DNA of 27,554 bases from Dehalococcoidia bacterium (GCA_023129815.1 JAGMBH010000148.1:1-27554), one strand, 5' to 3'. Positions 12,458-24,483 are shown, counted from the stretch's first letter. Program-made: numbers and translations. The notes: generated by a model from the letters alone, not told the origin.

Positions 12458-12748
12458 CTATGTTGTTAATTCCACTTTACGGGAGTTTTTATCAAACCAA
12501 CCTTCATAGAGTATTAAATCCGGGTGCTCATCGAGTGCAGCCCAATTTTCGACTTTAATTCCCTTCTCTATTGCCTGAACTTCACTGAAAATCCTAAAAT
12601 TGAAAGATTTATCAGTTTTAGATTTCAATCTCTGCTGCACTACAGCTTTGAGATGCCAGACCCAATCTGGGTCTTCCTTTTTCTCCGTCACTAGATACGA
12701 CCCTACTGGGTCTGGTATGTTTTTCGGTTTTTCAGTTTTCCAAAACAT
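12458..12748 (-). CDS. Conserved hypothetical protein, paralog of 20278-20622
   Basis: Shares MFWK, PD.VG..LV.E.K..PDWVW.LK.VV and L.E.PDLILYEGWFDK.S.KV with the second copy. Confidence 0.85.
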   Translation of the reverse strand: MFWKTEKPKNIPDPVGSYLVTEKKEDPDWVWHLKAVVQQRLKSKTDKSFNFRIFSEVQAIEKGIKVENWAALDEHPDLILYEGWFDKNSRKVELTT

Positions 12749-12855: not shown

Positions 12856-13254
12856 CTATCTCGAAATGTAGAATAGGAAGCTACCTTCAGCTATAACCGT
12901 GTTATCTTCAAGGGTAAGCACTCCCTTAGCCTCCACTAATCTTTTTGTTATTTTGATAACCCAACCAGAGGCTTGAATTGGTTCCCCTATGGGTGCTACA
13001 TGTTTAAACTTTACTTCACTCTTGATGGTAGCGCCAACATTAATTCCGTGGTAGAGAATACTATAACCAGTTACCACATCGAGGAGGGTATAGAGGATGC
13101 CGCCATGAGTAGCATTTTTGCAGCCTTGGTGAAATTCGCCTGGGGTAAACTCTGCCCTAACCTTTTCTCCATCATAAACAGGTTTCAGCTTCAGCCCTAT
13201 AGGATTATCTTCGCCGCACCCAAAGGAAAGTCCAGTTGGGAATTCAACGTCCAT
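12856..13254 (-). CDS. PaaI/hotdog-fold thioesterase
   Basis: Start moved to MDVEF (GGAGGA SD). FGCGEDNPIGL, HQG..NATHGGILYTLLD and PIGE motifs. Confidence 0.88.
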   Translation of the reverse strand: MDVEFPTGLSFGCGEDNPIGLKLKPVYDGEKVRAEFTPGEFHQGCKNATHGGILYTLLDVVTGYSILYHGINVGATIKSEVKFKHVAPIGEPIQASGWVIKITKRLVEAKGVLTLEDNTVIAEGSFLFYISR

Positions 13255-13374
13255 TATGATTCCTCCCATGTTACTGCCTAAAGTGGGCAACCAGAACCCC
13301 GAGCTACACCACCATTTTAACCCGCCTAAAATCGCCACTCAGGGAGAGTCCTTTTTTCTGCTTGTCTAACATCC

Positions 13375-13965: not shown

Positions 13966-14007
13966 TTTTCTCCTAGTAAGGTGTGATTATTTTATGTTTC
14001 ATCTTCT

Positions 14008-14122
14008 TGGTGGGATGCCACTTGCCCGATTACGCCAAGGGCAGCATACGGGAGGGTGTATTCCCTTTTCCAGGGAGTAGCGGAACCTTGGAGCCCTTGT
14101 TTTTCCCTGGCAGAGCCCACCA
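14008..14122 (-). ncRNA. Candidate structured RNA or 3' UTR element, unassigned
   Basis: Ends pair (TGGTGGG/CCCACCA and TGCCA/TGGCA); internal stems CCAGGGA/TCCCTGG and TGCCC/GGGCA. Not matched to any known family. Confidence 0.35.
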
Positions 14123-14133
14123 TTGCCTGACCT

Positions 14134-15348
14134 TCAGAGTTTAGCTACTTCGGTTTGGGCTTGGGCTTCTTTTGCATACTTCTCACCTCCTTTCTTGATT
14201 ATTGTTGGGCAACCAGGAGCCCGATTAAATATAGTTTGTTTGGGTTCTTTAACCCTAGCTCTCAAATCTTCCGTAACTTCACAATATACTTGCAAGGTTT
14301 GTTCCGCGGTATGCTCCCAGGTAAATCTAGCTGCTCTTTTAAACCCTTTGTTAATAAGGGATTTTCTAAGCTCTTGATTCGTCAAAACTCCACGTATAGC
14401 TGTCGCTATCCCTTCAATATCATTTGGCTCAACTTGTATAGCTGCCTCACCAGCTATTTCAGGTAGTGAAGAGCGATTTGATACTATCACCGGGCATCCA
14501 CAAGCCATTGCTTCAAGTGGTGGGAAGCCAAAGCCTTCATAGAAGGAAGGTAAGATAAAGCACTCGGCATTAGAGTAGTAAACAGGTAATTCTTCTTCAG
14601 CAACATAATCAGTGAAAATAATATCGGTTGAGATTTCTAGCTCAATAATTACTTGTAGGGTATGCTTCCTGAACTCTGCCTCTGAACCTCCAGCCTTACC
14701 CACCTTTACCAACTTTAAGTTCTTAAATCTACTCTCACTCTTTAGTCTGCTAAAGGCTTTAAGCAAGCCAGCGAAATTCTTCCTAGGATGTTCTGAACCA
14801 ACAAAGAGGAGATAAGGATAGTCTGTGAATCGGCGTGAGGTCGGTTTGAACAATTGGTGGTCTACACCCTCATACACTACGGAGATGCGCTCCTCTGGTA
14901 TCCCTAAATGCTTAATTAGATCGTCTTTTGTTGTTTGGGATACGGCAATTATTCTGGTTGCTTTCTTTATCCCTCTGTAGTCCAGAGAAAGGTAGAGCTT
15001 ATCCCTGAGATTGGGGCGGTGGATAAAGGTGCCATATCCCTTAAGGTCGAAATACCTTATTAGGTCGTGGACAGTGATAATGTAAGGCACTCGAAGGAAA
15101 ACACCATAGCGCCCCAGATGTTGGTTAGGTAAGTGAACTGTGTTGGCTGATCTGTTCAGCGTCCTGACAAACTGCCAGTCTTGCCATAGAGCTTTCACAG
15201 CTTTAGGTGAAAAGAACGAAATATTGAATAACTCAGCTACCTGTTGATAAATATCGGAATAGATTTTAGGGACATCCAATTTTTCAGCGAGCTTCTGGGA
15301 GTAAAGGTCTTGCGACCCTTTGCCTATAGTCACCACTAACGTTACCAC
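14134..15348 (-). CDS. Glycosyltransferase family 4 (MtfB/mannosyltransferase-like)
   Basis: ITVHDL, AVSQTTKDDL, FVGSEHPRKN and EGFGFPPLEAMACGCPVI. GTG start at 15348 with GGGAGG SD overlapping the GT2 stop. Confidence 0.93.
   Translation of the reverse strand: MVTLVVTIGKGSQDLYSQKLAEKLDVPKIYSDIYQQVAELFNISFFSPKAVKALWQDWQFVRTLNRSANTVHLPNQHLGRYGVFLRVPYIITVHDLIRYFDLKGYGTFIHRPNLRDKLYLSLDYRGIKKATRIIAVSQTTKDDLIKHLGIPEERISVVYEGVDHQLFKPTSRRFTDYPYLLFVGSEHPRKNFAGLLKAFSRLKSESRFKNLKLVKVGKAGGSEAEFRKHTLQVIIELEISTDIIFTDYVAEEELPVYYSNAECFILPSFYEGFGFPPLEAMACGCPVIVSNRSSLPEIAGEAAIQVEPNDIEGIATAIRGVLTNQELRKSLINKGFKRAARFTWEHTAEQTLQVYCEVTEDLRARVKEPKQTIFNRAPGCPTIIKKGGEKYAKEAQAQTEVAKL
14145..14177 (-). CDS. Lys/Pro micropeptide MQKKPKPKPK
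   Basis: AAAGGAGGTGA-N5-ATG; nested out of frame in the GT4 3' tail; near-identical peptide at 21963-21995. Confidence 0.65.
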   Translation of the reverse strand: MQKKPKPKPK

Positions 15349-16196
15349 TTCAGCCTCCCTGATAGGTAGCCTGCCCTCTGAGCCATCTTGGTAAACAAAA
15401 GCAAAACAAAGGAGCGGACCCATAGGTCTTTAAATTTAAAGATGCCCTCTCTAAATCCTTTATCCCTTCCACGTACTAACTTGCGGTAATAGCCGTCTTT
15501 AAGAAGCCCTCGGAGACTTCTGCCGTATCTAAAATTTATCCTCCAGGTTTTTATTAGGCCATGCTCTTTGTGGTAGACAGAGGCAGGCAAAATTCCTACC
15601 TTAGAGGATACTTTATGCGCTTCGAAATAGATGATGGCATGGTCGTGATGAATGACAACAGGAATTATCTCTCTGGGGATTGCCCGGAAAGCCTTTTCTA
15701 AAATCTCTCGCTTAAAAAACCTCGGCAACAAATTTCCCTCCAATGGGTCAAAATTTGGTTGAAGATGAATTAGCCTTCTATCTGCTTCGTAAAGCCTCTC
15801 GAAAAAACTTCTTGGTTTATAAGAGAGTTCCTCGAGAGCCAACATATCGTAGCTATCCATCATAAGTAGCGCTCGTTCTACAGCGGTAGGCTCCAAAATC
15901 TGGTCGGAATCAAGGAGAAGGATGAAATCAGCTTGGGATTGGAGAAATCCCGCATACCTTGCCCCAAGAAGCTTTCCTTCATAAGAGATAAATTTGGCGC
16001 TAAAGCTTCCTATAATGTCCTTCGTTTGATCAGTGGATTTGCTATCCACGACCAGAGTCTCTATATTGGAATAGCTTTGGTCCTTCACTGAAGCGAGGCA
16101 ATCGCCGATGACATCCTCGGAATTCATGGTAGGGATAATTACTGAAACCAGAGGTTTGTCCTCCCTCAAGTTTTCTTTCCTTCCTCTCCTTAACAC
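15342..16196 (-). CDS. Glycosyltransferase family 2
   Basis: LVSVIIPTMN, VVDSKSTDQT and the DxD motif LLLDSD. Confidence 0.92.
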   Translation of the reverse strand: MLRRGRKENLREDKPLVSVIIPTMNSEDVIGDCLASVKDQSYSNIETLVVDSKSTDQTKDIIGSFSAKFISYEGKLLGARYAGFLQSQADFILLLDSDQILEPTAVERALLMMDSYDMLALEELSYKPRSFFERLYEADRRLIHLQPNFDPLEGNLLPRFFKREILEKAFRAIPREIIPVVIHHDHAIIYFEAHKVSSKVGILPASVYHKEHGLIKTWRINFRYGRSLRGLLKDGYYRKLVRGRDKGFREGIFKFKDLWVRSFVLLLFTKMAQRAGYLSGRLKW

Positions 16197-17239
16197 TAAA
16201 GTGATTCAAAGAGTTCTATAAACCTTTGGGCTACTCCTCTTGCCGATTTCTCAGCCATAAATTTCTCCACTGCCTCTTGATCTGCCTTCCTCCCCTCAAA
16301 TACTTGAGCTAAAACCTCTTTTAGTTCATCAAGGTCTTTATATTTCAAAACTTCCTCCCCTAAATCCTCTGTATACCTTCCCTCTAACATGATGATGGGG
16401 CATCCGGAGCCTAAACAGAGATACACTGTGCTGGGGACAACAATATTGAAGCTTTGCTTGTAAAGCAGCAATGCATCTGAAGCGTGTAAGTAGTCATAAA
16501 GCTCCTCAACTGTCGCCCCTCCTTCCCTTATCTGAATGAAGCTATATCTATCCTGAGCTTTATCTAATAGCTCTGACCTTCCTTCAGCGGCAAGAACCAA
16601 ATATAGCAGGGGGTATTCCTGGTTTAAGTTTTCAAGAGGTAGAAGTGTAGGGAAGTGTTGATGAATGACAATGCCATAACTAAAGACAATTTTCTTATCC
16701 TGAGGTAGACCTAGTTTTTCTCTAGCTTGCCTTTTGTCGCCAGGTTTCAAGGGATGGCAGGGATAAGGAATAATATGAATCCTATCTGGAGGAAACTTCC
16801 TAATAAGCTCCCTTTGATAGCGCTCATCGAAGCAGCCAATAGCATCGAAATCGAATTGGTAGAACTCAGGGTAAGGCGGTAAATAGCCTTCATGGATGAC
16901 CAGGATTGTCTTTGCCTTAGCTTTTATCTGGGGCCAAATCTCAAGTAGCTTATCCATAGGCATAAGCTCAAGGTTTTGAATAATGAAGATGTCACAGCCT
17001 GACTCAAGACAAACTTCCTTATTGAGTGACGAAGGCTTAAGGCCCTTAACAGGCTCTCTATCTACGGTGTAGCAGCGGGTGACATATGATTCATCCTTAT
17101 CAGTTATCACATTTTCATCGTTAGCTGGGGCAAAGACCTTAAGCTCATGCCCCGTCTTCACCCATTCCCTACCCACAAGCTCAGCATGCACTGCTACCCC
17201 ACAGGCAGCATTCCATGGGCTCATCATCGCTATTTTCAT
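16196..17239 (-). CDS. Atypical GT-B (GT4-like) glycosyltransferase, paralog B
   Basis: MKIAMMSPWN..GVAVHAELVG; AREKLGLP; DALLL..CLGSGCPII; ends AQRFIELFESL. Confidence 0.82.
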   Translation of the reverse strand: MKIAMMSPWNAACGVAVHAELVGREWVKTGHELKVFAPANDENVITDKDESYVTRCYTVDREPVKGLKPSSLNKEVCLESGCDIFIIQNLELMPMDKLLEIWPQIKAKAKTILVIHEGYLPPYPEFYQFDFDAIGCFDERYQRELIRKFPPDRIHIIPYPCHPLKPGDKRQAREKLGLPQDKKIVFSYGIVIHQHFPTLLPLENLNQEYPLLYLVLAAEGRSELLDKAQDRYSFIQIREGGATVEELYDYLHASDALLLYKQSFNIVVPSTVYLCLGSGCPIIMLEGRYTEDLGEEVLKYKDLDELKEVLAQVFEGRKADQEAVEKFMAEKSARGVAQRFIELFESL

Positions 17240-17408
17240 TTTTCCCCCTTGTGTAAGCTTCGAGAAGCCTCCTTTTGCCTTCGCTCAAACCTTAGCCACA
17301 ATAGTATTCATGAACTAGCATAGTTATCCTCTATTTCTCAGGTTAAAAGGAACAAAATACCCTTTTACTTCAAACAGAAGCTGTTTATGGTTTTTACTTC
17401 CCTTTCCG

Positions 17409-17495
17409 CTACTTCTTCTTTGAAGGCTTTGGCATGGACGCTGGCTTTGCTGCCCCAGCCTTCCCCTTCTTCCTTTTCTTCTCTTTTTTATCCAT
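17409..17495 (-). CDS. Basic micropeptide MDKKEKKRKKGKAGAAKPASMPKPSKKK
   Basis: AGGAGG SD overlapping the upstream GT stop; similar to 20148-20246. Confidence 0.65.
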   Translation of the reverse strand: MDKKEKKRKKGKAGAAKPASMPKPSKKK

Positions 17496-17503
17496 CTCCC
17501 CTC

Positions 17504-18544
17504 CTAAAGCGACTCAAAAAGCTCTATAAATCTTTGGGCAATCTTCTCCGCTGAATTTGCCTCGCAATACCTTTTCGCAGCTCTCCTCTTTTCTTCGACT
17601 TCTCCAGAACCTTGAAATATGTTCCTAAGCCCTTGTTTGAACTCTTCCATATCTCTATACTTGAAGACCTCCTCATGGATGAAATCAAAGAAGTTGGAAT
17701 CCCTGACCAAGATAGGGCAGCCTGAGCCAAGGCATAAATGAATTGTACTTGAGAGGACAGCAGCGCCGGGGATAGAATGTTTGCCAAAGATCGTCACATC
17801 AGCAGCGTGGAGGTAATCGTAAATCTTTGGGTGCTCCAAGACCTCTTTTCTTATCTCGCAATCCAGCCCTTCAAAGCCAAACACTCTCTGCGCCCCGCTT
17901 ATTATTACAAGCTTTATGGGATATTCATGACTTAGTTCTTTGAGTGCCTCCACTGTCTCGTGGTCATTTATATGGCGCCACTTCTGGCCGAAAACAAAGA
18001 TGAGCTTCTTATCTAAGGGCAGGGCTAATTTTTTCCTCGTCTCTTCCTTACCATTTGATAGCCAGCGGTGACAAGGGAAGGGAATAATATGAATTTTATC
18101 CTCAGGATATACTTGCTTGAGGAAATCCTTATACCTTGAGTCAAAGCAGACAATGGCATCCCAATCGAATTGAAAAAAGGAGGGGTCATCTGGTAACCTC
18201 GATGCATGAACAACAAGAATAGTCTTTGCTTTCCTATGGATATGCGGGAAGATCTTCGCCAGCTTATCCTTGGGAAGCATGCCTAGGTCCTGGACAACGA
18301 AGAAATCGTAATCTTCTTTAAGAAAAGGGATAGGGTTGAGATAATTCGTTCTTCCCGGCGTCCCAAAGCACCGAGTAACATATTCCTGATCTACTCCAAT
18401 AAGGGAGGCACCGTGGAAATCATCCTCAAGGAAGGAGAAGACCTTAAGCTCATGTCCTGCCTTAACCCACTCCTCTCCAACAAGCTCAGCATGGATAGAA
18501 ACCCCAGAGGTTTGATTCCAAGCGCTCATCATTGCTATCCTCAT
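17504..18544 (-). CDS. Atypical GT-B (GT4-like) glycosyltransferase, paralog A
   Basis: MRIAMMSAWN..GVSIHAELVG; ADVTIF..CLGSGCPIL; ends AQRFIELFESL. Confidence 0.82.
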   Translation of the reverse strand: MRIAMMSAWNQTSGVSIHAELVGEEWVKAGHELKVFSFLEDDFHGASLIGVDQEYVTRCFGTPGRTNYLNPIPFLKEDYDFFVVQDLGMLPKDKLAKIFPHIHRKAKTILVVHASRLPDDPSFFQFDWDAIVCFDSRYKDFLKQVYPEDKIHIIPFPCHRWLSNGKEETRKKLALPLDKKLIFVFGQKWRHINDHETVEALKELSHEYPIKLVIISGAQRVFGFEGLDCEIRKEVLEHPKIYDYLHAADVTIFGKHSIPGAAVLSSTIHLCLGSGCPILVRDSNFFDFIHEEVFKYRDMEEFKQGLRNIFQGSGEVEEKRRAAKRYCEANSAEKIAQRFIELFESL

Positions 18545-18559
18545 CGCTAACCTCGTATC

Positions 18560-18724
18560 CTAAGGCTTCATTTGGAAAGTAAAGGCAGTCGGGACTTTCC
18601 TCACCGCAGCTCCGCACTTCGGACACTTCTCAATTGGTTTATCAGCTAATGTTTGCTTTACCTCGAAGCCGTCTTTGCAGTATTCACATCCTTTATCTAA
18701 TGCCTTGTAAATATAAGTTGGCAT
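18560..18724 (-). CDS. FmdB-family zinc-ribbon protein
   Basis: MPTYIY..CEYC...FEV.Q.....P...CPKCG; SD AAGGGAGG. Confidence 0.88.
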   Translation of the reverse strand: MPTYIYKALDKGCEYCKDGFEVKQTLADKPIEKCPKCGAAVRKVPTAFTFQMKP

Positions 18725-20045
18725 CTTTTCCTCCCTTCCTAGCAATTCTTACTTCGAGAAACTCATCTGTCATTTGGGATTCCAGAGCTTCTAGTCCATT
18801 GACTTTCAGCATAGCGATCAGGTCAACAACCAAAGTGGACCAACCAAAATCTGTGGCACCGTAACCTTCCCCAGTCCAACGATTGTAGAACTCCCTAAAG
18901 CCAGCTCTCGATACAAGTTCACAGGTTCTTTTTATAAGCTCGCAGGCTATCTCTTTGTAGCCGTGTTTTAAAAGTCCCTGAACAATAAACCAGTTCGTGT
19001 TAATCCAAGTTGGCCCTCTCCAAAGGTAATCTTGCCCTTTATAAATTGGGTCAAAGGAGTGTTCGCTTCTCGCCACTGAAGGAATTGGATAGGGGAGCCA
19101 GAATTCCTCAGGATTGAGTAAATGCCGCGTAATTAGATTATCTACCTTATCCCCTTCAATGTTGTCCAGAATTAACGGCATCAAGGATATGACCGTGACA
19201 ACCATTACTGGCATCTCTTTCTTGTTCTTGGTGTTTAGGTTGTAAAAACATCCATCGTGATAGCACTTATCAATAATGGCCTTCTCCACACGGTCAGCCA
19301 AAAGCTTAAACCTTACATTCTCCTCTCGATTTCCCATTACTCGGTAAAGTTCAGATAAAACCCTAAGCCCTTGGGCATAGATGCTATTTACCAGAACATC
19401 CTCCACGTCAAATAGGTCTAAGTCTATTATCTTTTCCAGTCCATATTTTGCTTCGGCATAGCGAAGGTCTAGTGCTCTTGCCGCCCAGTGCGGATTTTCT
19501 GGGAAGCCCAAAGCGGGGGTATAAGCGGGAGAGTGGTCTAGCCCCGATTCCCAAGGGGCAATGATGGAAATCAGACCATCATTATCAAAATCTCTGTTCT
19601 GTAACCAAAGGTAATATCTCCTGAGGTGGGGTAAAGTTTGCCTCAAAAACTCGATGTCTCCGCAGCGGTTAAAAATCGCCTTAACTGCCTGCGCTATCAC
19701 CGGTGGCTGAATATAGGACGAGTGATGATATGGAGGCTTGCCTTGTAGGAAAGTCCAGTAGGACGCACTTTCTCTATCGCCCCAGAAAATTATGTGGGGG
19801 ATAAAGCCATCGCTATGTTGTGCTGAAAGCAGATTCAAGAGCTCCTGTTTTGCCAGATTTATATCGAAATGAGTTAGGACAATGGCGTGAAAACAAGAAT
19901 CCCAAAACCACTGAAAAGGATAGAATTCAACCGAAGGGCAGACATAACTGTAACCGGTACCATTCCAGTGGACTGCGCCCTCTTTACGATTTTTCCATAG
20001 GATAGTTCTTGCCTCATTCCTAATTCTTGTGTATCTGTCTTCCAT
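18693..20045 (-). CDS. GH63/MGH1-like (alpha/alpha)6 glycoside hydrolase (mannosyl-/glucosylglycerate hydrolase-like)
   Basis: YPFQWFWDSCFH, QPPVIAQA, PWESGLDHSP, LWRGPTWINTNW, FREFYN..TGEG.GA.DFGWS. Confidence 0.85.
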   Translation of the reverse strand: MEDRYTRIRNEARTILWKNRKEGAVHWNGTGYSYVCPSVEFYPFQWFWDSCFHAIVLTHFDINLAKQELLNLLSAQHSDGFIPHIIFWGDRESASYWTFLQGKPPYHHSSYIQPPVIAQAVKAIFNRCGDIEFLRQTLPHLRRYYLWLQNRDFDNDGLISIIAPWESGLDHSPAYTPALGFPENPHWAARALDLRYAEAKYGLEKIIDLDLFDVEDVLVNSIYAQGLRVLSELYRVMGNREENVRFKLLADRVEKAIIDKCYHDGCFYNLNTKNKKEMPVMVVTVISLMPLILDNIEGDKVDNLITRHLLNPEEFWLPYPIPSVARSEHSFDPIYKGQDYLWRGPTWINTNWFIVQGLLKHGYKEIACELIKRTCELVSRAGFREFYNRWTGEGYGATDFGWSTLVVDLIAMLKVNGLEALESQMTDEFLEVRIARKGGKDANLYLQGIR

Positions 20046-20147
20046 CTAAAAATCCCCCTACGCAGTATTTTGAGCCAGACTTCCCCCTCTGGGACGTTTG
20101 TCCCCTATGTGAGACACTTGTGTAAAGTTGCCTTCCTGTTGCCCTGG

Positions 20148-20246
20148 TCACCCCTTCGAAGGCTTTGCTGGTCGCGGTGGAGAAGCTTGTTTTGCCGCCC
20201 TAGCCTCTTGCCTTTGCTTCTTTTCCTTCTTTTGTATTTTAGCCAT
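20148..20246 (-). CDS. Basic micropeptide MAKIQKKEKKQRQEARAAKQASPPRPAKPSKG
   Basis: Moderate SD (GAAGGG); shares KKEKK..A.AAK.AS.P..KPSK with 17409-17495. Confidence 0.6.
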   Translation of the reverse strand: MAKIQKKEKKQRQEARAAKQASPPRPAKPSKG

Positions 20247-20277
20247 TCTTGTCCCTTCACTCGTAGACTGGATTCTC

Positions 20278-20622
20278 TTACGTTCCCTGTTTCTCTTCTA
20301 TCTGCACCTTCATGGACTTCTTATCAAACCAGCCCTCGTAGAGTATCAAATCAGGGTACTCATTAAGAGAGCTATAGTCCTTAACGGCTACCTTTTTTGC
20401 TGCTGCCTGAGCCTCATCAAAAACTCTGACATCGAAAGCGTCTTTGCCTTCCTCTGGCCTCTTACGCACCACACCCTTAAGCTTCCACACCCAGTCTGGA
20501 TTCTGCTTGAGCTCCACCACCAGATGCCTCCCCACCAAATCTGGTATCTCCTTTAGTCCCGGTAGTTTCTCGACCTCTGGCTTCGATGGCTCCTTTGTCA
20601 CTGGCTTCTTTTTCCAAAACAT
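20278..20622 (-). CDS. Conserved hypothetical protein, paralog of 12458-12748
   Basis: SD GAGGAGG; PDWVWKLKGVV and PDLILYEGWFDK. Confidence 0.87.
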   Translation of the reverse strand: MFWKKKPVTKEPSKPEVEKLPGLKEIPDLVGRHLVVELKQNPDWVWKLKGVVRKRPEEGKDAFDVRVFDEAQAAAKKVAVKDYSSLNEYPDLILYEGWFDKKSMKVQIEEKQGT

Positions 20623-20655
20623 TTTTGCCCTCCTCGTTACTATCTCCTTGACGTG

Positions 20656-20712
20656 TTACCTCCCACGGGGCTTGGGCTTCCCACTAGGCTTGGGCTTTGG
20701 TTTCTTTGCCAT
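20656..20712 (-). CDS. Lys/Pro micropeptide MAKKPKPKPSGKPKPRGR
   Basis: GAGGAGGTGA-N5-ATG; fits the gap between two genes; KKPKPKP core matches 14145-14177 with synonymous differences. Confidence 0.7.
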   Translation of the reverse strand: MAKKPKPKPSGKPKPRGR

Positions 20713-20731
20713 TTTGGTCACCTCCTCATCT

Positions 20732-21442
20732 TTAATGACTTTGACATTCTTCTTTCATCGAGCAAACTAGGCATTTTTTCTTGCGGCAGTAGTTCTTGCC
20801 TAGTCTCACCAGGGCAGCTTCCAAATCCGAGAACCTTGCTCCACCCTGCTCGCTTGTCTCCCACATCGCTTTCAGGTTCTCCAAAGCCACCACCGCATCA
20901 CTTGCCCAGACTAAGCTCAGGTTTCTTGCCGCCACGAGTGCAGGCTCCGAGAGCGGCAGCTCCACCTTATCCCAGATGTCCCTCAACTCCCTCAAAAATA
21001 TGTTGACTGTAACCGGGCCGATGCCTTTTCCCAGACTCCGAAGTTTCTTTTCCAAATCCCTTCCATCCTTGGCAAAGAAATGCAGCCGATTTAGATCGCC
21101 CCCGTATTTTTCCTTTACAGTTCGCGTTACCTCTAGGAGCTTGGTGGCAGTCTTGAAGTCATACCTTACATACCCACCCCGGTCGAGAATGTCCACCAGG
21201 CCCTGCCAACCAGTTTCCAAGACGGCCTCGGGGGAGAGCACATTTGCCTTTTCAAACTCCTTGTAGGTGTTTATAGCGATGCTCTCGCCAATTCTGGCAC
21301 CGAACAACACCGAGGCCAGGAACCACTTAAAGACCTCATCTGATTCCATACTGGCGAGGTTGATGCCCAAAGCCGGCGAGTACGCACTACCCAGTTCCTT
21401 CACCAGCTTTATGCATAGACCTTGCTGTGTTATCTCGCTCAT
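20732..21442 (-). CDS. HhH-GPD/Endonuclease III-fold protein with a C-terminal 4-Cys cluster
   Basis: FKWFLASVLFGARI, GGYVRYD, HhH-like GKGIGPVTVNIFL and C-x4-C-x2-C-x5-C. Start set at MSEIT. Confidence 0.72.
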   Translation of the reverse strand: MSEITQQGLCIKLVKELGSAYSPALGINLASMESDEVFKWFLASVLFGARIGESIAINTYKEFEKANVLSPEAVLETGWQGLVDILDRGGYVRYDFKTATKLLEVTRTVKEKYGGDLNRLHFFAKDGRDLEKKLRSLGKGIGPVTVNIFLRELRDIWDKVELPLSEPALVAARNLSLVWASDAVVALENLKAMWETSEQGGARFSDLEAALVRLGKNYCRKKKCLVCSMKEECQSH

Positions 21443-21474
21443 ACTCACAGCGCCCCCTGAAGTTTTGCAGAGTC

Positions 21475-21852
21475 TCATTGTAGTTTCCGGTGTTGCTTGG
21501 AGCTGGCTTTTGCCTTCAGTATCTTAGGTCTTACTTTCTTCATTACTATGATGGGTATTGCATATATTGGCAGCCCAAGCGCTAATGTTTTTGGCATACC
21601 TAGATGGGGCAGTAACCATATGGTTAGAGCGGCATAGCAGGCAAACGCCGGCAGAAACAAAAGGGAACCCTTTGTGTATGCAATGCTGGTGCCTACCCCT
21701 CCGTTCCGGTACATCAAGAGAACATTTAGAAGAAACAGCACTGGCAGGCTGGCCACAAAAGCCGCCAGCATACCGTTACCCCGGCTGCCAATATAAGCCA
21801 CCGCTGTGACCACCGTTCCACCGATTAAAAAATAAAGCAAATAATGCCACAT
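21475..21852 (-). CDS. Small multi-TM membrane protein (DUF3147/GlpM-like)
   Basis: YFLIGGTVVTAV, AAFVASLP; about four hydrophobic segments. Confidence 0.7.
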   Translation of the reverse strand: MWHYLLYFLIGGTVVTAVAYIGSRGNGMLAAFVASLPVLFLLNVLLMYRNGGVGTSIAYTKGSLLFLPAFACYAALTIWLLPHLGMPKTLALGLPIYAIPIIVMKKVRPKILKAKASSKQHRKLQ

Positions 21853-21890
21853 AGTCTGTTAAATCCTTCCTTGACTCATAATACCCAGGT

Positions 21891-21949
21891 CTTTGGCGGG
21901 CGGAGGATACGCTTCACACCTTGTGATAGTGTTCCCCCGTCCACCAAAG
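21891..21949 (-). other. Long imperfect hairpin just downstream of micropeptide MQKKGKPKPK
   Basis: Arms CTTTGGTGGACGGGGG / CCTCCGCCCGCCAAAG pair at 15 of 16 positions including G-U; inner ACAC/GTGT stem; no poly-U tail. Confidence 0.6.
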
Positions 21950-21962
21950 CTCTCTTTCCTTC

Positions 21963-21995
21963 CTACTTTGGCTTGGGTTTGCCCTTCTTTTGCAT
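21963..21995 (-). CDS. Lys/Pro micropeptide MQKKGKPKPK, first ORF of the leftward unit
   Basis: AAAGGAGG SD; 9/10 aa identical to 14145-14177, with three synonymous codon differences. Confidence 0.68.
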   Translation of the reverse strand: MQKKGKPKPK

Positions 21996-22071
21996 TTTGC
22001 CTCGCCTCCTTTACTAAGAACACCTGGTTCCTTTATTCACTACATAGTTTAAGCAGCCTGTGTTAAAATAA

Positions 22072-22122
22072 CCTTAGAAATTAGTTGCAGTTTCATTAGA
22101 AAAACCTTAGATTTTCCTTAGA
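22072..22122. promoter_or_regulatory. Direct-repeat array C(C/A)TTAGA, putative OmpR-family operator
   Basis: Units at 22072, 22094, 22105 and 22116 (spacing 22, 11, 11 bp) in the divergent region before the kinase gene. Confidence 0.65.
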
Positions 22123-22141
22123 ATTTTCGTTCGTTGGTACC

Positions 22142-23731
22142 ATGGCGAAAAGAGGTAAAGGCTCAAAGTCCGGAAAGGTGGTCAGGCTGGAGAAGATTGA
22201 ACCGTGGGCTGCTCCCTCTGGGGAAACAGATTTTCAGGCCAAGCTGCTGGCCATCCTCAGCAGTACAGTAGACATCTTGGGCGGTAATGCCGGGATAGTT
22301 GCTCTATGGAATGAGAAGGAGAGGCATTTCATTGAAGAGACAAGTTATGGTCTGAATTCTAGAGGCGTAGAACGACTACGCCCCCTACTTAAGGAAGCTA
22401 TTCCCGATCTTGCCACTAGCAAGCAGAGTTTCGACCGGCTCTCCCAACTTTCTCCTGGCCTTCGCGTTCCGGCAACCCCAACAGACCAGGTGCAGGATCC
22501 TATCATTGCCCTGCCGCTTCAGATCGCAGGAAAGATGATTGGGCTGATATACGTGTTTCGCCCCCATTTGGCAGAGCCCTTCAGCAGCAGTGACCAGCGT
22601 GTACTGTCCGCTTTTGCCGACCAAGTAGCCATCTCACTACAAAATGCTCACCTGGCATCCCAGCTTGCCCAAGAACGATACAAGGTTGAGTCGATTCTGG
22701 AAAGCAGCGCCGATGGAATCATAACCATCGACATGGAACGACGCATACTTTCCTTCAATGCTAGCATGGAGAGGCTTACCGGCTGGAAAAGAGAGGAGGC
22801 AGTCAGAAGCTATTGCTTTGAAGTATTAAGGTTAAGGGATAGTCAGGGGGCAGATCTTTGCCAAACCAGGTGCCCCATTGCTAAAGGTACTAAGGGCTTC
22901 TCTAGTCTCGACGGCATCATCACTACCAAGGATGGTCAAAATGTTGATGTGGGCATGAATTACTCTATAGTCCGTTCGCCTAGCGGGAGTCTTTTGACCA
23001 CGGTGGTAAACATTCGGGACATCACTCGCCTTCGCCAAATTGAGAGCCTGAGGTCTGCACTGCTTGCCACTGTTTCGCATGAACTCCAGACTCCTATTTC
23101 GATTATTAAGGCCTACGCCAGCATCTTGGCACGCTCTGATGCCCAGTGGAGTCAGCAAACTATTAGGGATAAACTACAGGCTATTGAGGAGGAGAGTGAC
23201 CGCTTGAGCGAGCTGGTAAGCAAACTCCTTTATACCTCTCGGCTTGAGGTTGGGGATTTGTCATTAAATAAACTCCTGCTGGACTTACCTAAAGAAGCGC
23301 ATAAAGTGTCAAAGAGATTTGTTGGACTAACAGAAATCCATAAAGTGGAGGCCGATTTTCCACCTGAGTTCCCACCTGTTCTCGCCGACCCAGAAAAAAT
23401 AGGAGAGGTGCTCACAAATCTTGTCGAGAATGCCACAAAGTTCTCGCCCCAAGGTGGAACAATCACCATCAAAGGCGAGACCTCAGGGAACGAGATCTCA
23501 GTCACAGTTGTTGATGAAGGAATTGGCATTGCACTACGAGACCAAGAGCGAATCTTCGAGCGCTTCTATAGAGTGAAGGATAGCTTGGCCAGGCCAACTC
23601 AGGGCACAGGGCTTGGGCTCTACATTTGCAAAACCATTATTGAAGCTCACGGAGGTCGAATCGGGGTAGAAAGTGAGCTGGGAAAGGGTTCTCACTTCAC
23701 TTTTACTCTGCCTATGGGCGAACAAGAATAG
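22142..23731 (+). CDS. Cytoplasmic GAF-PAS sensor histidine kinase
   Basis: GAF ([16 protein letters not shown]), PAS ([11 protein letters not shown]), His[25 protein letters not shown] and GTGLGL; no clear TM segment. Confidence 0.95.
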
Positions 23732-23763
23732 AGATTGAAGATGGCAAGGAATTGAGGCTGCGT

Positions 23764-24483
23764 ATGACGGAACCTAGAAGAAAACAAGATAAGACGATTC
23801 TAGTTGTGGATGACGAACCACGCATCATCGAAGCGGTGGCCATGAATCTGGAACTAGAGGGTTACCAGGTCTCCGGTACCTCTAACGGCTACGAGGCGTT
23901 GAAGAAGCTGACTGAAGAATTGCCCGAACTAGTTATCCTCGATGTCATGATGCCGGAGATGGATGGTTTTGAGACCCTAAAAAAGATTCGCGAGGTCTCC
24001 ACCGTGCCAGTGATTATGCTCACTGTGAAGGGCGAAGAAATTGATAAGGTAAAGGGGCTTGACCTAGGCGCCGATGACTATGTTACCAAGCCTTTCAGCC
24101 CAAAGGAGCTTGTCTCACGGGTAAAAGCGGTATTGCGCCGTGTTGAAATGCCTAGCCCTGTGCCAAAGAGCGAAATACATGTGGACGATAATCTCTCCAT
24201 CGACTTCAGTCGGTATAAGGTCATAGTCAAAGGTAAAGAGGTCCACCTCAGGCCTACTGAATATCGACTTTTGTACCATCTGGTGAGCAATGCTGGCCGT
24301 GTCCTTACCCATGAGACCCTGTTAAGAAAAGTCTGGGGTTATGAATACCGAGATGAAGACCACTATCTGTGGCTCTACATTACCTATCTGCGCCAGAAGA
24401 TTGAGGAGGATCCCAAGCACCCGAAATATATCTTGGGTGAACGAGGAATAGGCTACCGGTTCAAGGAATTTGGAAAGGAGTAG
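23764..24483 (+). CDS. OmpR/PhoB-family response regulator (KdpE-like)
   Basis: [21 protein letters not shown], w[20 protein letters not shown]...RGIGY. Start set at MTEPR. Confidence 0.96.

Follow-up and report, generated by a model that had tools for sequence, protein, structure and literature searches.

A 27,554-nucleotide stretch of DNA from a Dehalococcoidia bacterium (GCA_023129815.1 JAGMBH010000148.1:1-27554; hereafter the window) carries on its minus strand five minute open reading frames (ORFs), u1 to u5, which belong to two undescribed micropeptide families of narrow distribution, class A and class B. The genes of both classes are very probably translated and subject to purifying selection at the peptide level, since their motifs stay in frame and synonymous differences between copies greatly exceed non-synonymous ones. 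In the reading we favour, to which we assign a probability of roughly 45%, the peptides would be short disordered polycations that act in trans by binding an anionic partner, likeliest RNA, the ribosome or DNA, within a regulated stress response. The window is contig C55 of the source assembly, G000, a 1.16-Mb, 82%-complete metagenome-assembled genome (MAG), and near-identical DNA was found in cold-seep and marine-sediment metagenomes of several studies.

An initial annotation of the window had listed the five micro-ORFs, all of which read exactly as it gave them. The class A members are u1 (21963-21995), encoding MQKKGKPKPK; u2 (20656-20712), encoding the 18-residue form MAKKPKPKPSGKPKPRGR and situated between a helix-hairpin-helix (HhH)-like gene and the gene p114; and u5 (14145-14177), encoding MQKKPKPKPK and overlapping the 3′ end of a GT4 glycosyltransferase ORF in another frame. 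Class B is represented by u3 (20148-20246; 32 residues), 32 nucleotides (nt) after the p114 stop codon, and by u4 (17409-17495; 28 residues), which lies 8 nt after the stop of the glycosyltransferase gene GTa and 170 nt before a second such gene, GTb. The Shine-Dalgarno (SD) sequence of u1, GGAGG, is at 22005-22009, with AAAGGAGG nine bases upstream of the ATG, while the full form GGAGGTGA-N5-ATG, which the annotation had ascribed to two of the ORFs, is indeed found before u2 and u5. SD pairing energies were computed against an assumed 16S 3′ tail and ranked among those of 783 long ORFs from this assembly, a crude background set in which the first ATG was taken as the start. On this scale u5 falls within the top 0.1%, u2 within the top 0.4% and u1 within the top 3%; u4 is in the top 20% and u3 about at the median, and the orthologues of u3 carry better SD sites than the window copy.

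Further members of both classes occur in related Dehalococcoidia MAGs and metagenome contigs. Class A has the form M-Q-K...(KP)n-K, with 10-16 residues, and is known from nine copies: besides the peptides of u1 and u5, these are MQKGKPTPKPK, MQKGKPAPKPKPK, MQKKPKPGGPKPK, MQKGKPGPGKPKPK, MQKSKPKPKPK, MQKGKPKPRPK and, from locus L091, MQKRPGAPKPGAPKPK. The 18-residue form, MAKK[PS]KPKP[SG]GKPKP.G, is known from three copies, and the u2 orthologues read MAKKPKPKPGGKPKPGGK (G014) and MAKKSKPKPGGKPKPSGK (L082). Orthologues of u1 are present in G014, G012, L029, L032 and L082, all reading MQK...PKPK-stop in frame, and u5 shows a 79% DNA match to a stand-alone gene of G015. Class B peptides start with M[ADG]KK, continue with a Lys-rich stretch and then AAK...KPSKK, and are 23-45 residues long; the 11 copies, six of the u4 type and five of the u3 type, include MDKKGKKEKRKDKAAAAKPSKKK, MGKKKKKGKAKVAKPASVPKPAMKK and MAKKTSREKKKKKQKGKKEIRQEARAAKEASPPQPSKPSKK. 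Those outside the window come from metagenome contigs fetched via relatives of GTb and p114. Relatives of u3 are in L060, L064, L084 and L082, u3 itself gives a profile match at E 5.8e-10, and the u4 slot is occupied likewise in L047, L053, L055, L056 and L069.

In both classes the N- and C-terminal motifs share one frame across length changes, so the insertions and deletions between them are multiples of three. Nei-Gojobori counts, pooled per family over non-independent pairs, gave proportions of synonymous (pS) and non-synonymous (pN) differences of 0.76 and 0.09 for class A, 0.49 and 0.08 for u2, 0.54 and 0.21 for the u4 type and 0.40 and 0.15 for the u3 type. The columns of class A that vary at codon positions 1, 2 and 3 number 5, 5 and 11 of 13; of the four codons at which u1 departs from u5, three are synonymous, just as had been noted at the outset. 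The proposal that these are real, related peptide genes of two subtypes with selection on the peptide is borne out by the in-frame motifs and by pS values far above pN. It is hardly credible, then, that the ORFs are non-functional, whether as chance ORFs in A/C- or purine-rich spacers or as CCN-AAR slippage repeats that yield no peptide. Their low complexity would suit such an origin, as would the losses in G017 and the flanking non-coding DNA, which between the closest relatives is about as conserved as the ORFs; but the nine class A copies preserve start, SD, frame and stop despite near-saturation of their third positions, the C-terminal motif of class B is retained with glycosyltransferase divergence to 43%, and the ORFs are clustered in one locus only. 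Two other candidate explanations were rejected: frameshifted parts of neighbouring genes, as the micro-ORFs have their own SD, their own stop and separate conservation, and membrane or type I toxin peptides, as hydrophobic residues are absent.

To place these ORFs against the remainder of the assembly, we passed its 17,745 ATG-started ORFs of 8-45 codons through a Lys/Pro composition filter and then looked for an SD-like upstream match. Nine ORFs pass the filter, which u3 narrowly fails, and five of the nine have an SD-like match. Four of these five lie within this 8-kb stretch, and the fifth encodes eight residues on another contig. SD-led Lys/Pro ORFs are therefore not equally common genome-wide, a concern that had accompanied the initial annotation, and the clustering of the micro-ORFs in a single 8-kb stretch is far beyond chance.

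Both classes are rare. A strict class A pattern, which misses longer variants such as that of L091, was run on 202 genomes of the order and on one genome per species for 185,579 species. It was found in 4 of the 202, two of them one-mismatch matches that were not inspected, and in seven contigs of the species set, of which five are Dehalococcoidia MAGs and two (Puia and Victivallis) look like chance matches. A class B profile recovers both window copies at E about 1e-10 and has no match among the 201 further species genomes of the order; the class B pattern and profile, applied to 119 and 202 genomes, identify G000 only. Searches with E up to 10 returned no match in Pfam or NCBIfam for the six class B peptides tested and none among PDB chains for the one tested, that of L060, and an ESM Atlas search gave chance-level scores only. 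In the literature on KPKPKP, on lysine-rich small proteins and on Dehalococcoidia small proteins, we found no report of such bacterial peptides.

The gene u1 forms a compact unit consisting of a conserved control region, a strong SD, the ORF and a conserved hairpin. The putative control region (21996-22141; 146 bp) contains conserved TCTAAGG direct repeats, is nearly invariant between G000 and G014 and across genera, and is discernible in L082 and G017. Across it, divergent from u1, Pfam identifies a GAF/PAS histidine kinase gene (22142-23731, plus strand) and, downstream of this, an OmpR-type response regulator gene (23752-24483, plus strand), an arrangement that recurs in G014, G017, L029, L032 and L082. 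The u1 unit is probably turned on by this adjacent two-component system. The hairpin (21891-21949, minus strand) comprises about 26 pairs, starts 13-18 nt past the u1 stop and lacks a U-tract. It is present in six loci, where 89.7% of cells are paired compared with 44-52% in slid controls; five pairs with changes on both sides still pair, and its covariation score was equalled in 7 of 500 shuffles. Because many of its pairs are G-U, we assign the hairpin to the sense RNA; a DNA-level palindrome was rejected, since G-U pairs exist on the sense strand only. Rfam (E up to 1) gave no match between 11000 and 23000, a scan for transfer RNA and transfer-messenger RNA found none, and a simple terminator scan returned nothing useful on the minus strand. 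The hairpin is probably a 3′ stabiliser or a leaky stop for a short u1 transcript.

The gene u1 invariably lies opposite the kinase gene, with the conserved, repeat-bearing control region in between. This placement recalls MgrB-like connectors and would suit a small u1 product that feeds back on the adjacent two-component system, as MgrB, SafA or PmrD do in enterobacteria. We consider this role very improbable. The class A copies u2, u5, G015 and L091 do not lie beside a kinase gene, and the sensor domains have been lost from the kinase of G012, whereas its u1 orthologue and hairpin are kept. Moreover, neither 10-residue peptide has a hydrophobic residue past Met1, so the products of u1 and u5 are not membrane peptides, and u1 has no membrane segment comparable to that of MgrB.

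The slots of u1 and u2 vary between relatives. In G017, the u1 slot (L021:4800-4900) reads ...KFKPKPKRRAKPE..., with no start codon and the hairpin gone, and the u2 slot (L021:5680-5720) keeps AAGGAGGTGACAAAA with no ATG. In L029 (990-1165), the u2 slot has the same SD (AAGGAGGTGACTAAAA), followed by an unrelated 58-residue ORF (MAVKIGEVQAKLS...) and no Lys/Pro peptide. In MAG CG2_30_46_19 (L032:1411-1551 and 2322-2700), a 47-residue GH63 remnant directly follows the gene for a Cys-rich protein, and the gene for the membrane protein is disrupted; in this MAG the island is in decay, with its u1 orthologue still intact.

Class A genes can stand alone. In G015, the class A gene lies between p114 paralogues and ychF and has its own terminator, a hairpin with a U-tract, 28 nt past the stop. 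In G012, nothing but a convergent gene comes after the u1 orthologue and its hairpin. The gene of L091 is located between holA and ychF, divergent from a MarR gene and 390 nt from the next gene, and its SD and MQK start are the same as those of u5 and the G015 gene. G014 has the kinase, u1, the membrane protein, the Cys-rich protein, u2 and an MFWK-type gene, followed directly by ychF, and the block of glycosyltransferase and glycoside hydrolase genes is absent. In the window itself, u5 lies within the last ~20 codons of the GT4 ORF, which extends by about that length beyond the end of its homologues (14134-14200) and thereby reads through the u5 SD and ORF. DNA homology to L056 and L050 ends just before the u5 SD, which marks the site as a recombination junction, and a u5-like ORF is missing at the GT4 3′ end in three related loci. 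These four loci and the break of homology at u5 show that class A is not tied to glycosyltransferases. We also observed that in G015 a TATAGT/TATATA box precedes the start of ychF by 6-7 nt and that an SD is lacking (L020:6834-6880), so the ychF mRNA may be leaderless.

The stand-alone units also bear on whether the ORFs might act in cis, as translated leaders or inter-cistronic ORFs. In that case their translation, or a stall on the polybasic or Pro-rich nascent chain, would govern how stable the mRNA is, whether Rho can reach it or how strongly the following gene is expressed, in response perhaps to ionic strength or to the supply of Lys- and Pro-tRNA. Several features would suit a leader: u1 opens its unit and is followed by the conserved hairpin and then the membrane-protein gene, u2 precedes p114-type genes by 33 nt in all three loci, the SD sites are very strong, the neighbouring genes hint at an osmotic theme, and in each peptide the C-terminal residues are the most conserved part, as in arrest peptides. 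We nevertheless regard cis action as rather unlikely, because some units have their own terminator (G015) or no downstream gene at all (G012, where the hairpin persists), the u1 hairpin has no U-tract and no alternative pairing involving the u1 ORF was seen, and the downstream genes have SD sites of their own. In addition, the spacers that follow class B genes vary and, from strain to strain, give way to others, the downstream gene changes from locus to locus, and a short ORF upstream of the regulated gene is not universal.

Class B genes follow a different layout. They start 8-40 nt behind the preceding gene, which is GTa, p114 or an RRM gene, and end 72-180 nt before the next, and in strain variants the spacers that follow them are replaced; they are thus arranged as trailing cistrons and not as leaders. 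The u3-type genes follow a p114-family gene in the window and in L084, and an RRM gene in L082 and, as a truncated copy, in L064. This RRM gene encodes a single-domain RNA-binding protein and lies just upstream of the u3-type ORFs (L082:4495-4755; L064:342-644). Contigs from cold seeps and marine sediments join modules differently at the micro-ORF borders (17239-17408, 20045-20157 and 18545), and at one such junction the 3′ end of a u3-like ORF is found about 13 nt before the start of GTa or GTb.

The u4 type is the one for which a link to glycosyltransferases is seen: each of the six loci covering this region has the u4-type ORF 8-37 nt downstream of a GTa-type stop codon, even L055, where the enzyme is ~43% identical. 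Class B, and above all u4, could partner the adjacent GT-B enzyme as an acceptor substrate with Ser amid Pro and Lys, as a small activating or anchoring subunit, or as a counter-ion for an anionic product; at least one Ser is present in every class B member, and among the 202 reference genomes of the order hardly any has class B or the GTa/GTb family (GTa family, 2 of 202). Such a partnership, which is what is left of the RiPP-like role first proposed, is unlikely all the same. Ser is not fixed at any position (in L055, KPAMKK stands in place of the KPSKKK of the other members), and at least one Ser per ~25 residues is expected by chance. Leader/core layout, protease, exporter and immunity gene are all absent, the u3-type genes follow p114 or RRM genes and not glycosyltransferase genes, and in G044 a glycosyltransferase homologue of 45% identity is not followed by such an ORF. 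Class A, for its part, has no conserved acceptor and occurs without glycosyltransferases.

The initial annotation had described a family spaced through a glycosylation operon and had proposed, among other roles, that its members are substrates of a system for ribosomally synthesized and post-translationally modified peptides (RiPPs). The first description is apt for u4, given its constant position behind GTa, and does not apply to class A or to the u3 type, for which co-inheritance with a modifying enzyme fails. The second is not supported, as there is no conserved acceptor, no leader/core organisation and no gene for processing or export. Acceptors of the glycopeptide kind (glycocins, SunS type) were considered and rejected: in class A none of the residues Ser, Thr and Cys is invariant, and u1 and u5 lack all three; in class B the position of Ser is not fixed either. 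The unit was found to contain neither protease nor transporter genes, and the GT2 enzyme scored 23 bits against SunS, for which the cut-off is 350. Of the annotation's two other proposals, H1-like nucleic-acid-binding peptides would suit the composition and the stand-alone units, and translational control cassettes are made less likely by those units and by the varying distance to the following gene.

We return to action in trans, for which the two stand-alone class A units (the G015 gene with its terminator, and G012), the L091 gene at 390 nt from its next neighbour and the trailing layout of class B argue. The putative products would be extended, disordered polycations acting on RNA, the ribosome or DNA. 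A stress context is offered by the genes that adjoin p114-family genes, namely those for RRM proteins, HSP20, sigma-54 activators and lysine 2,3-aminomutase. Several observations weigh against this reading. The hairpin followed by the membrane-protein gene, seen after u1 in five of six loci, and the 33-nt spacing of u2 from an MFWK/p114-type gene in three of three, fit a leader role equally well. The tight synteny of u4 with GTa, which holds even in L055, points to the enzyme, and not to nucleic acids, as the partner of u4. Nucleic-acid binding fits both the composition and the stand-alone units, and the ground for the binding itself is the composition. The family is patchy, with nothing found in four genomes of the same genus, the start codons of u1 and u2 are lost in G017, and pN/pS ratios on short low-complexity repeats are alignment-dependent.

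A more specific form of action on the ribosome, drawn by analogy, is improbable in our view: (Lys-Pro)n peptides could be endogenous translation modulators under two-component control that lodge in ribosomal RNA, for example in the exit tunnel. Ribosomes would then be throttled or protected under osmotic or starvation stress by a self-made, reversible 'hibernation peptide'. In a cis variant of the same idea, the polybasic nascent chains would act as ionic-strength sensors for compatible-solute genes. The analogy is with oncocin, Bac7 and apidaecin, proline-rich peptides of at least 18 residues with Arg-Pro (PRP) motifs, which are made and secreted by animals and bind the ribosomal exit tunnel. 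The peptides described here share with them the alternation of basic residue and proline and an extended conformation, a matter of resemblance only; they differ in having Lys-Pro, in lacking a signal peptide and in being the bacterium's own product.

Other known systems resemble the micropeptides in part. The C-terminal domain of histone H1, AlgP (AlgR3) and PhaF of Pseudomonas and the tail of mycobacterial HupB are similar in their Lys/Ala/Pro/Ser composition, expected disorder and positive charge, and the sequences studied here are likewise Lys/Ala/Pro-rich, highly basic and predicted to be disordered; class B segments such as GKAGAAKPASMPKPSKKK resemble one or two repeats of the H1/AlgP type. 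These tails, however, are long and attached to folded domains, whereas the micropeptides are free-standing, have 10-45 residues and an SD of their own, and no sequence homology was detected between the two. Thx, bS22 and bL37, basic ribosomal or ribosome-associated peptides of 24-33 residues, are comparable in size, high Lys/Arg content, strong translation signals and MAK-type N-termini. In contrast to these, the micropeptides have no match in Pfam, NCBIfam or PDB and occur as several paralogues in one patchy accessory island, and the 10-residue forms are far shorter. As a tiny ORF with a conserved stem-loop and possibly a stand-alone transcript, u1 is also reminiscent of SgrT/SgrS, SpfP/Spot 42, SR1P and MgtL/MgtP, but its peptide sequence is unrelated and neither a base-pairing target nor an attenuator alternative was found.

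The wider locus can be pictured as a variable accessory island of uncultured sediment Dehalococcoidia, bounded by holA/ychF on one side and by the two-component genes on the other, that combines small stress-type proteins, such as the p114 family, the RRM protein and the FmdB zinc ribbon, with the cytoplasmic turnover of glycosides, compatible solutes or oligosaccharides. On the minus strand, beyond the divergent kinase and regulator genes, the order is u1, a 125-residue membrane protein (21475-21852), a 248-residue Cys-rich HhH-like protein (20732-21478), u2, p114 (20278-20622), u3, a GH63/MGH1-like hydrolase, an FmdB zinc ribbon protein, GTa, u4, GTb, GT2, GT4 and u5, followed by several small genes and, beyond these, ychF and holA. 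The glycoside block, from the hydrolase to GT4, occupies 14134-20045 and was assigned with Pfam and NCBIfam; its GT4-type and GT2 transferases and GH63/MGH1-like hydrolase are as they had been described beforehand. For the 'HhH-fold' label given to the Cys-rich protein we found no confirmation, sequence searches of Pfam and PDB being negative; the Joint Genome Institute labels some of its homologues 'endonuclease III'. GH63/glucosylglycerate-hydrolase-like and GH130 enzymes are present in the island, and its sugar enzymes resemble glucosyl- and mannosylglycerate hydrolases and beta-1,2-mannobiose phosphorylases, all scoring under the curated cut-offs.

The p114 family has more than 227 metagenomic homologues and no Pfam domain. 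Both p114 and its paralogue o96 (12458-12748) begin with MFWKKK and contain a disordered linker as well as an alpha/beta domain, the latter of ~80 residues. The predicted fold of p114 (predicted local distance difference test, pLDDT, 77) matched no solved structure and only unnamed AlphaFold clusters, and p114 was never seen fused to a Lys/Pro tail. Elsewhere, p114-family genes neighbour those for sigma-54 activators, HSP20, PilZ, GT4 and the RRM protein, as well as lysine 2,3-aminomutase with ATP-grasp enzymes.

Directly downstream of u5, with which it may or may not belong, is a conserved structured-RNA-like element (14002-14124, minus strand), a candidate riboswitch or small RNA. It is about 120 nt long and reads GGTGGGCTCTGCCAGGGAA ... 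CCTCCCGT ... GCCCTTGGCGTAATCGGGCAAGTGGCATCCCACC, with a variable insert. A second copy is found in the same assembly (G000:C121:13357-13446), and further copies occur in five related genomes: G001, G007 (two), G011 (two), G018 and G039. Some copies end in a closing helix and a T-run, and Rfam returned no match for the element at 14002-14124. Downstream of the second copy (C121, ~13250-13290, minus strand), we noticed a strong SD (AAGGAGGTGGTG) followed by a minimal ORF, ATG-AAA-TAA.

Genes of 10-30 codons are invisible to annotation pipelines, and the window adds two peptide-selected families from abundant, uncultured subsurface bacteria of cold-seep and marine sediments. The finding corrects the tempting reading of the locus as a peptide-glycosylation (RiPP) system. 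A free 10-residue (Lys-Pro)n peptide preceded by one of the strongest ribosome-binding sites of its genome has no described bacterial counterpart. If the peptides bind RNA, the ribosome or DNA, they would represent a new kind of minimal stress effector; if they act in cis, they would constitute a new class of polybasic leader.

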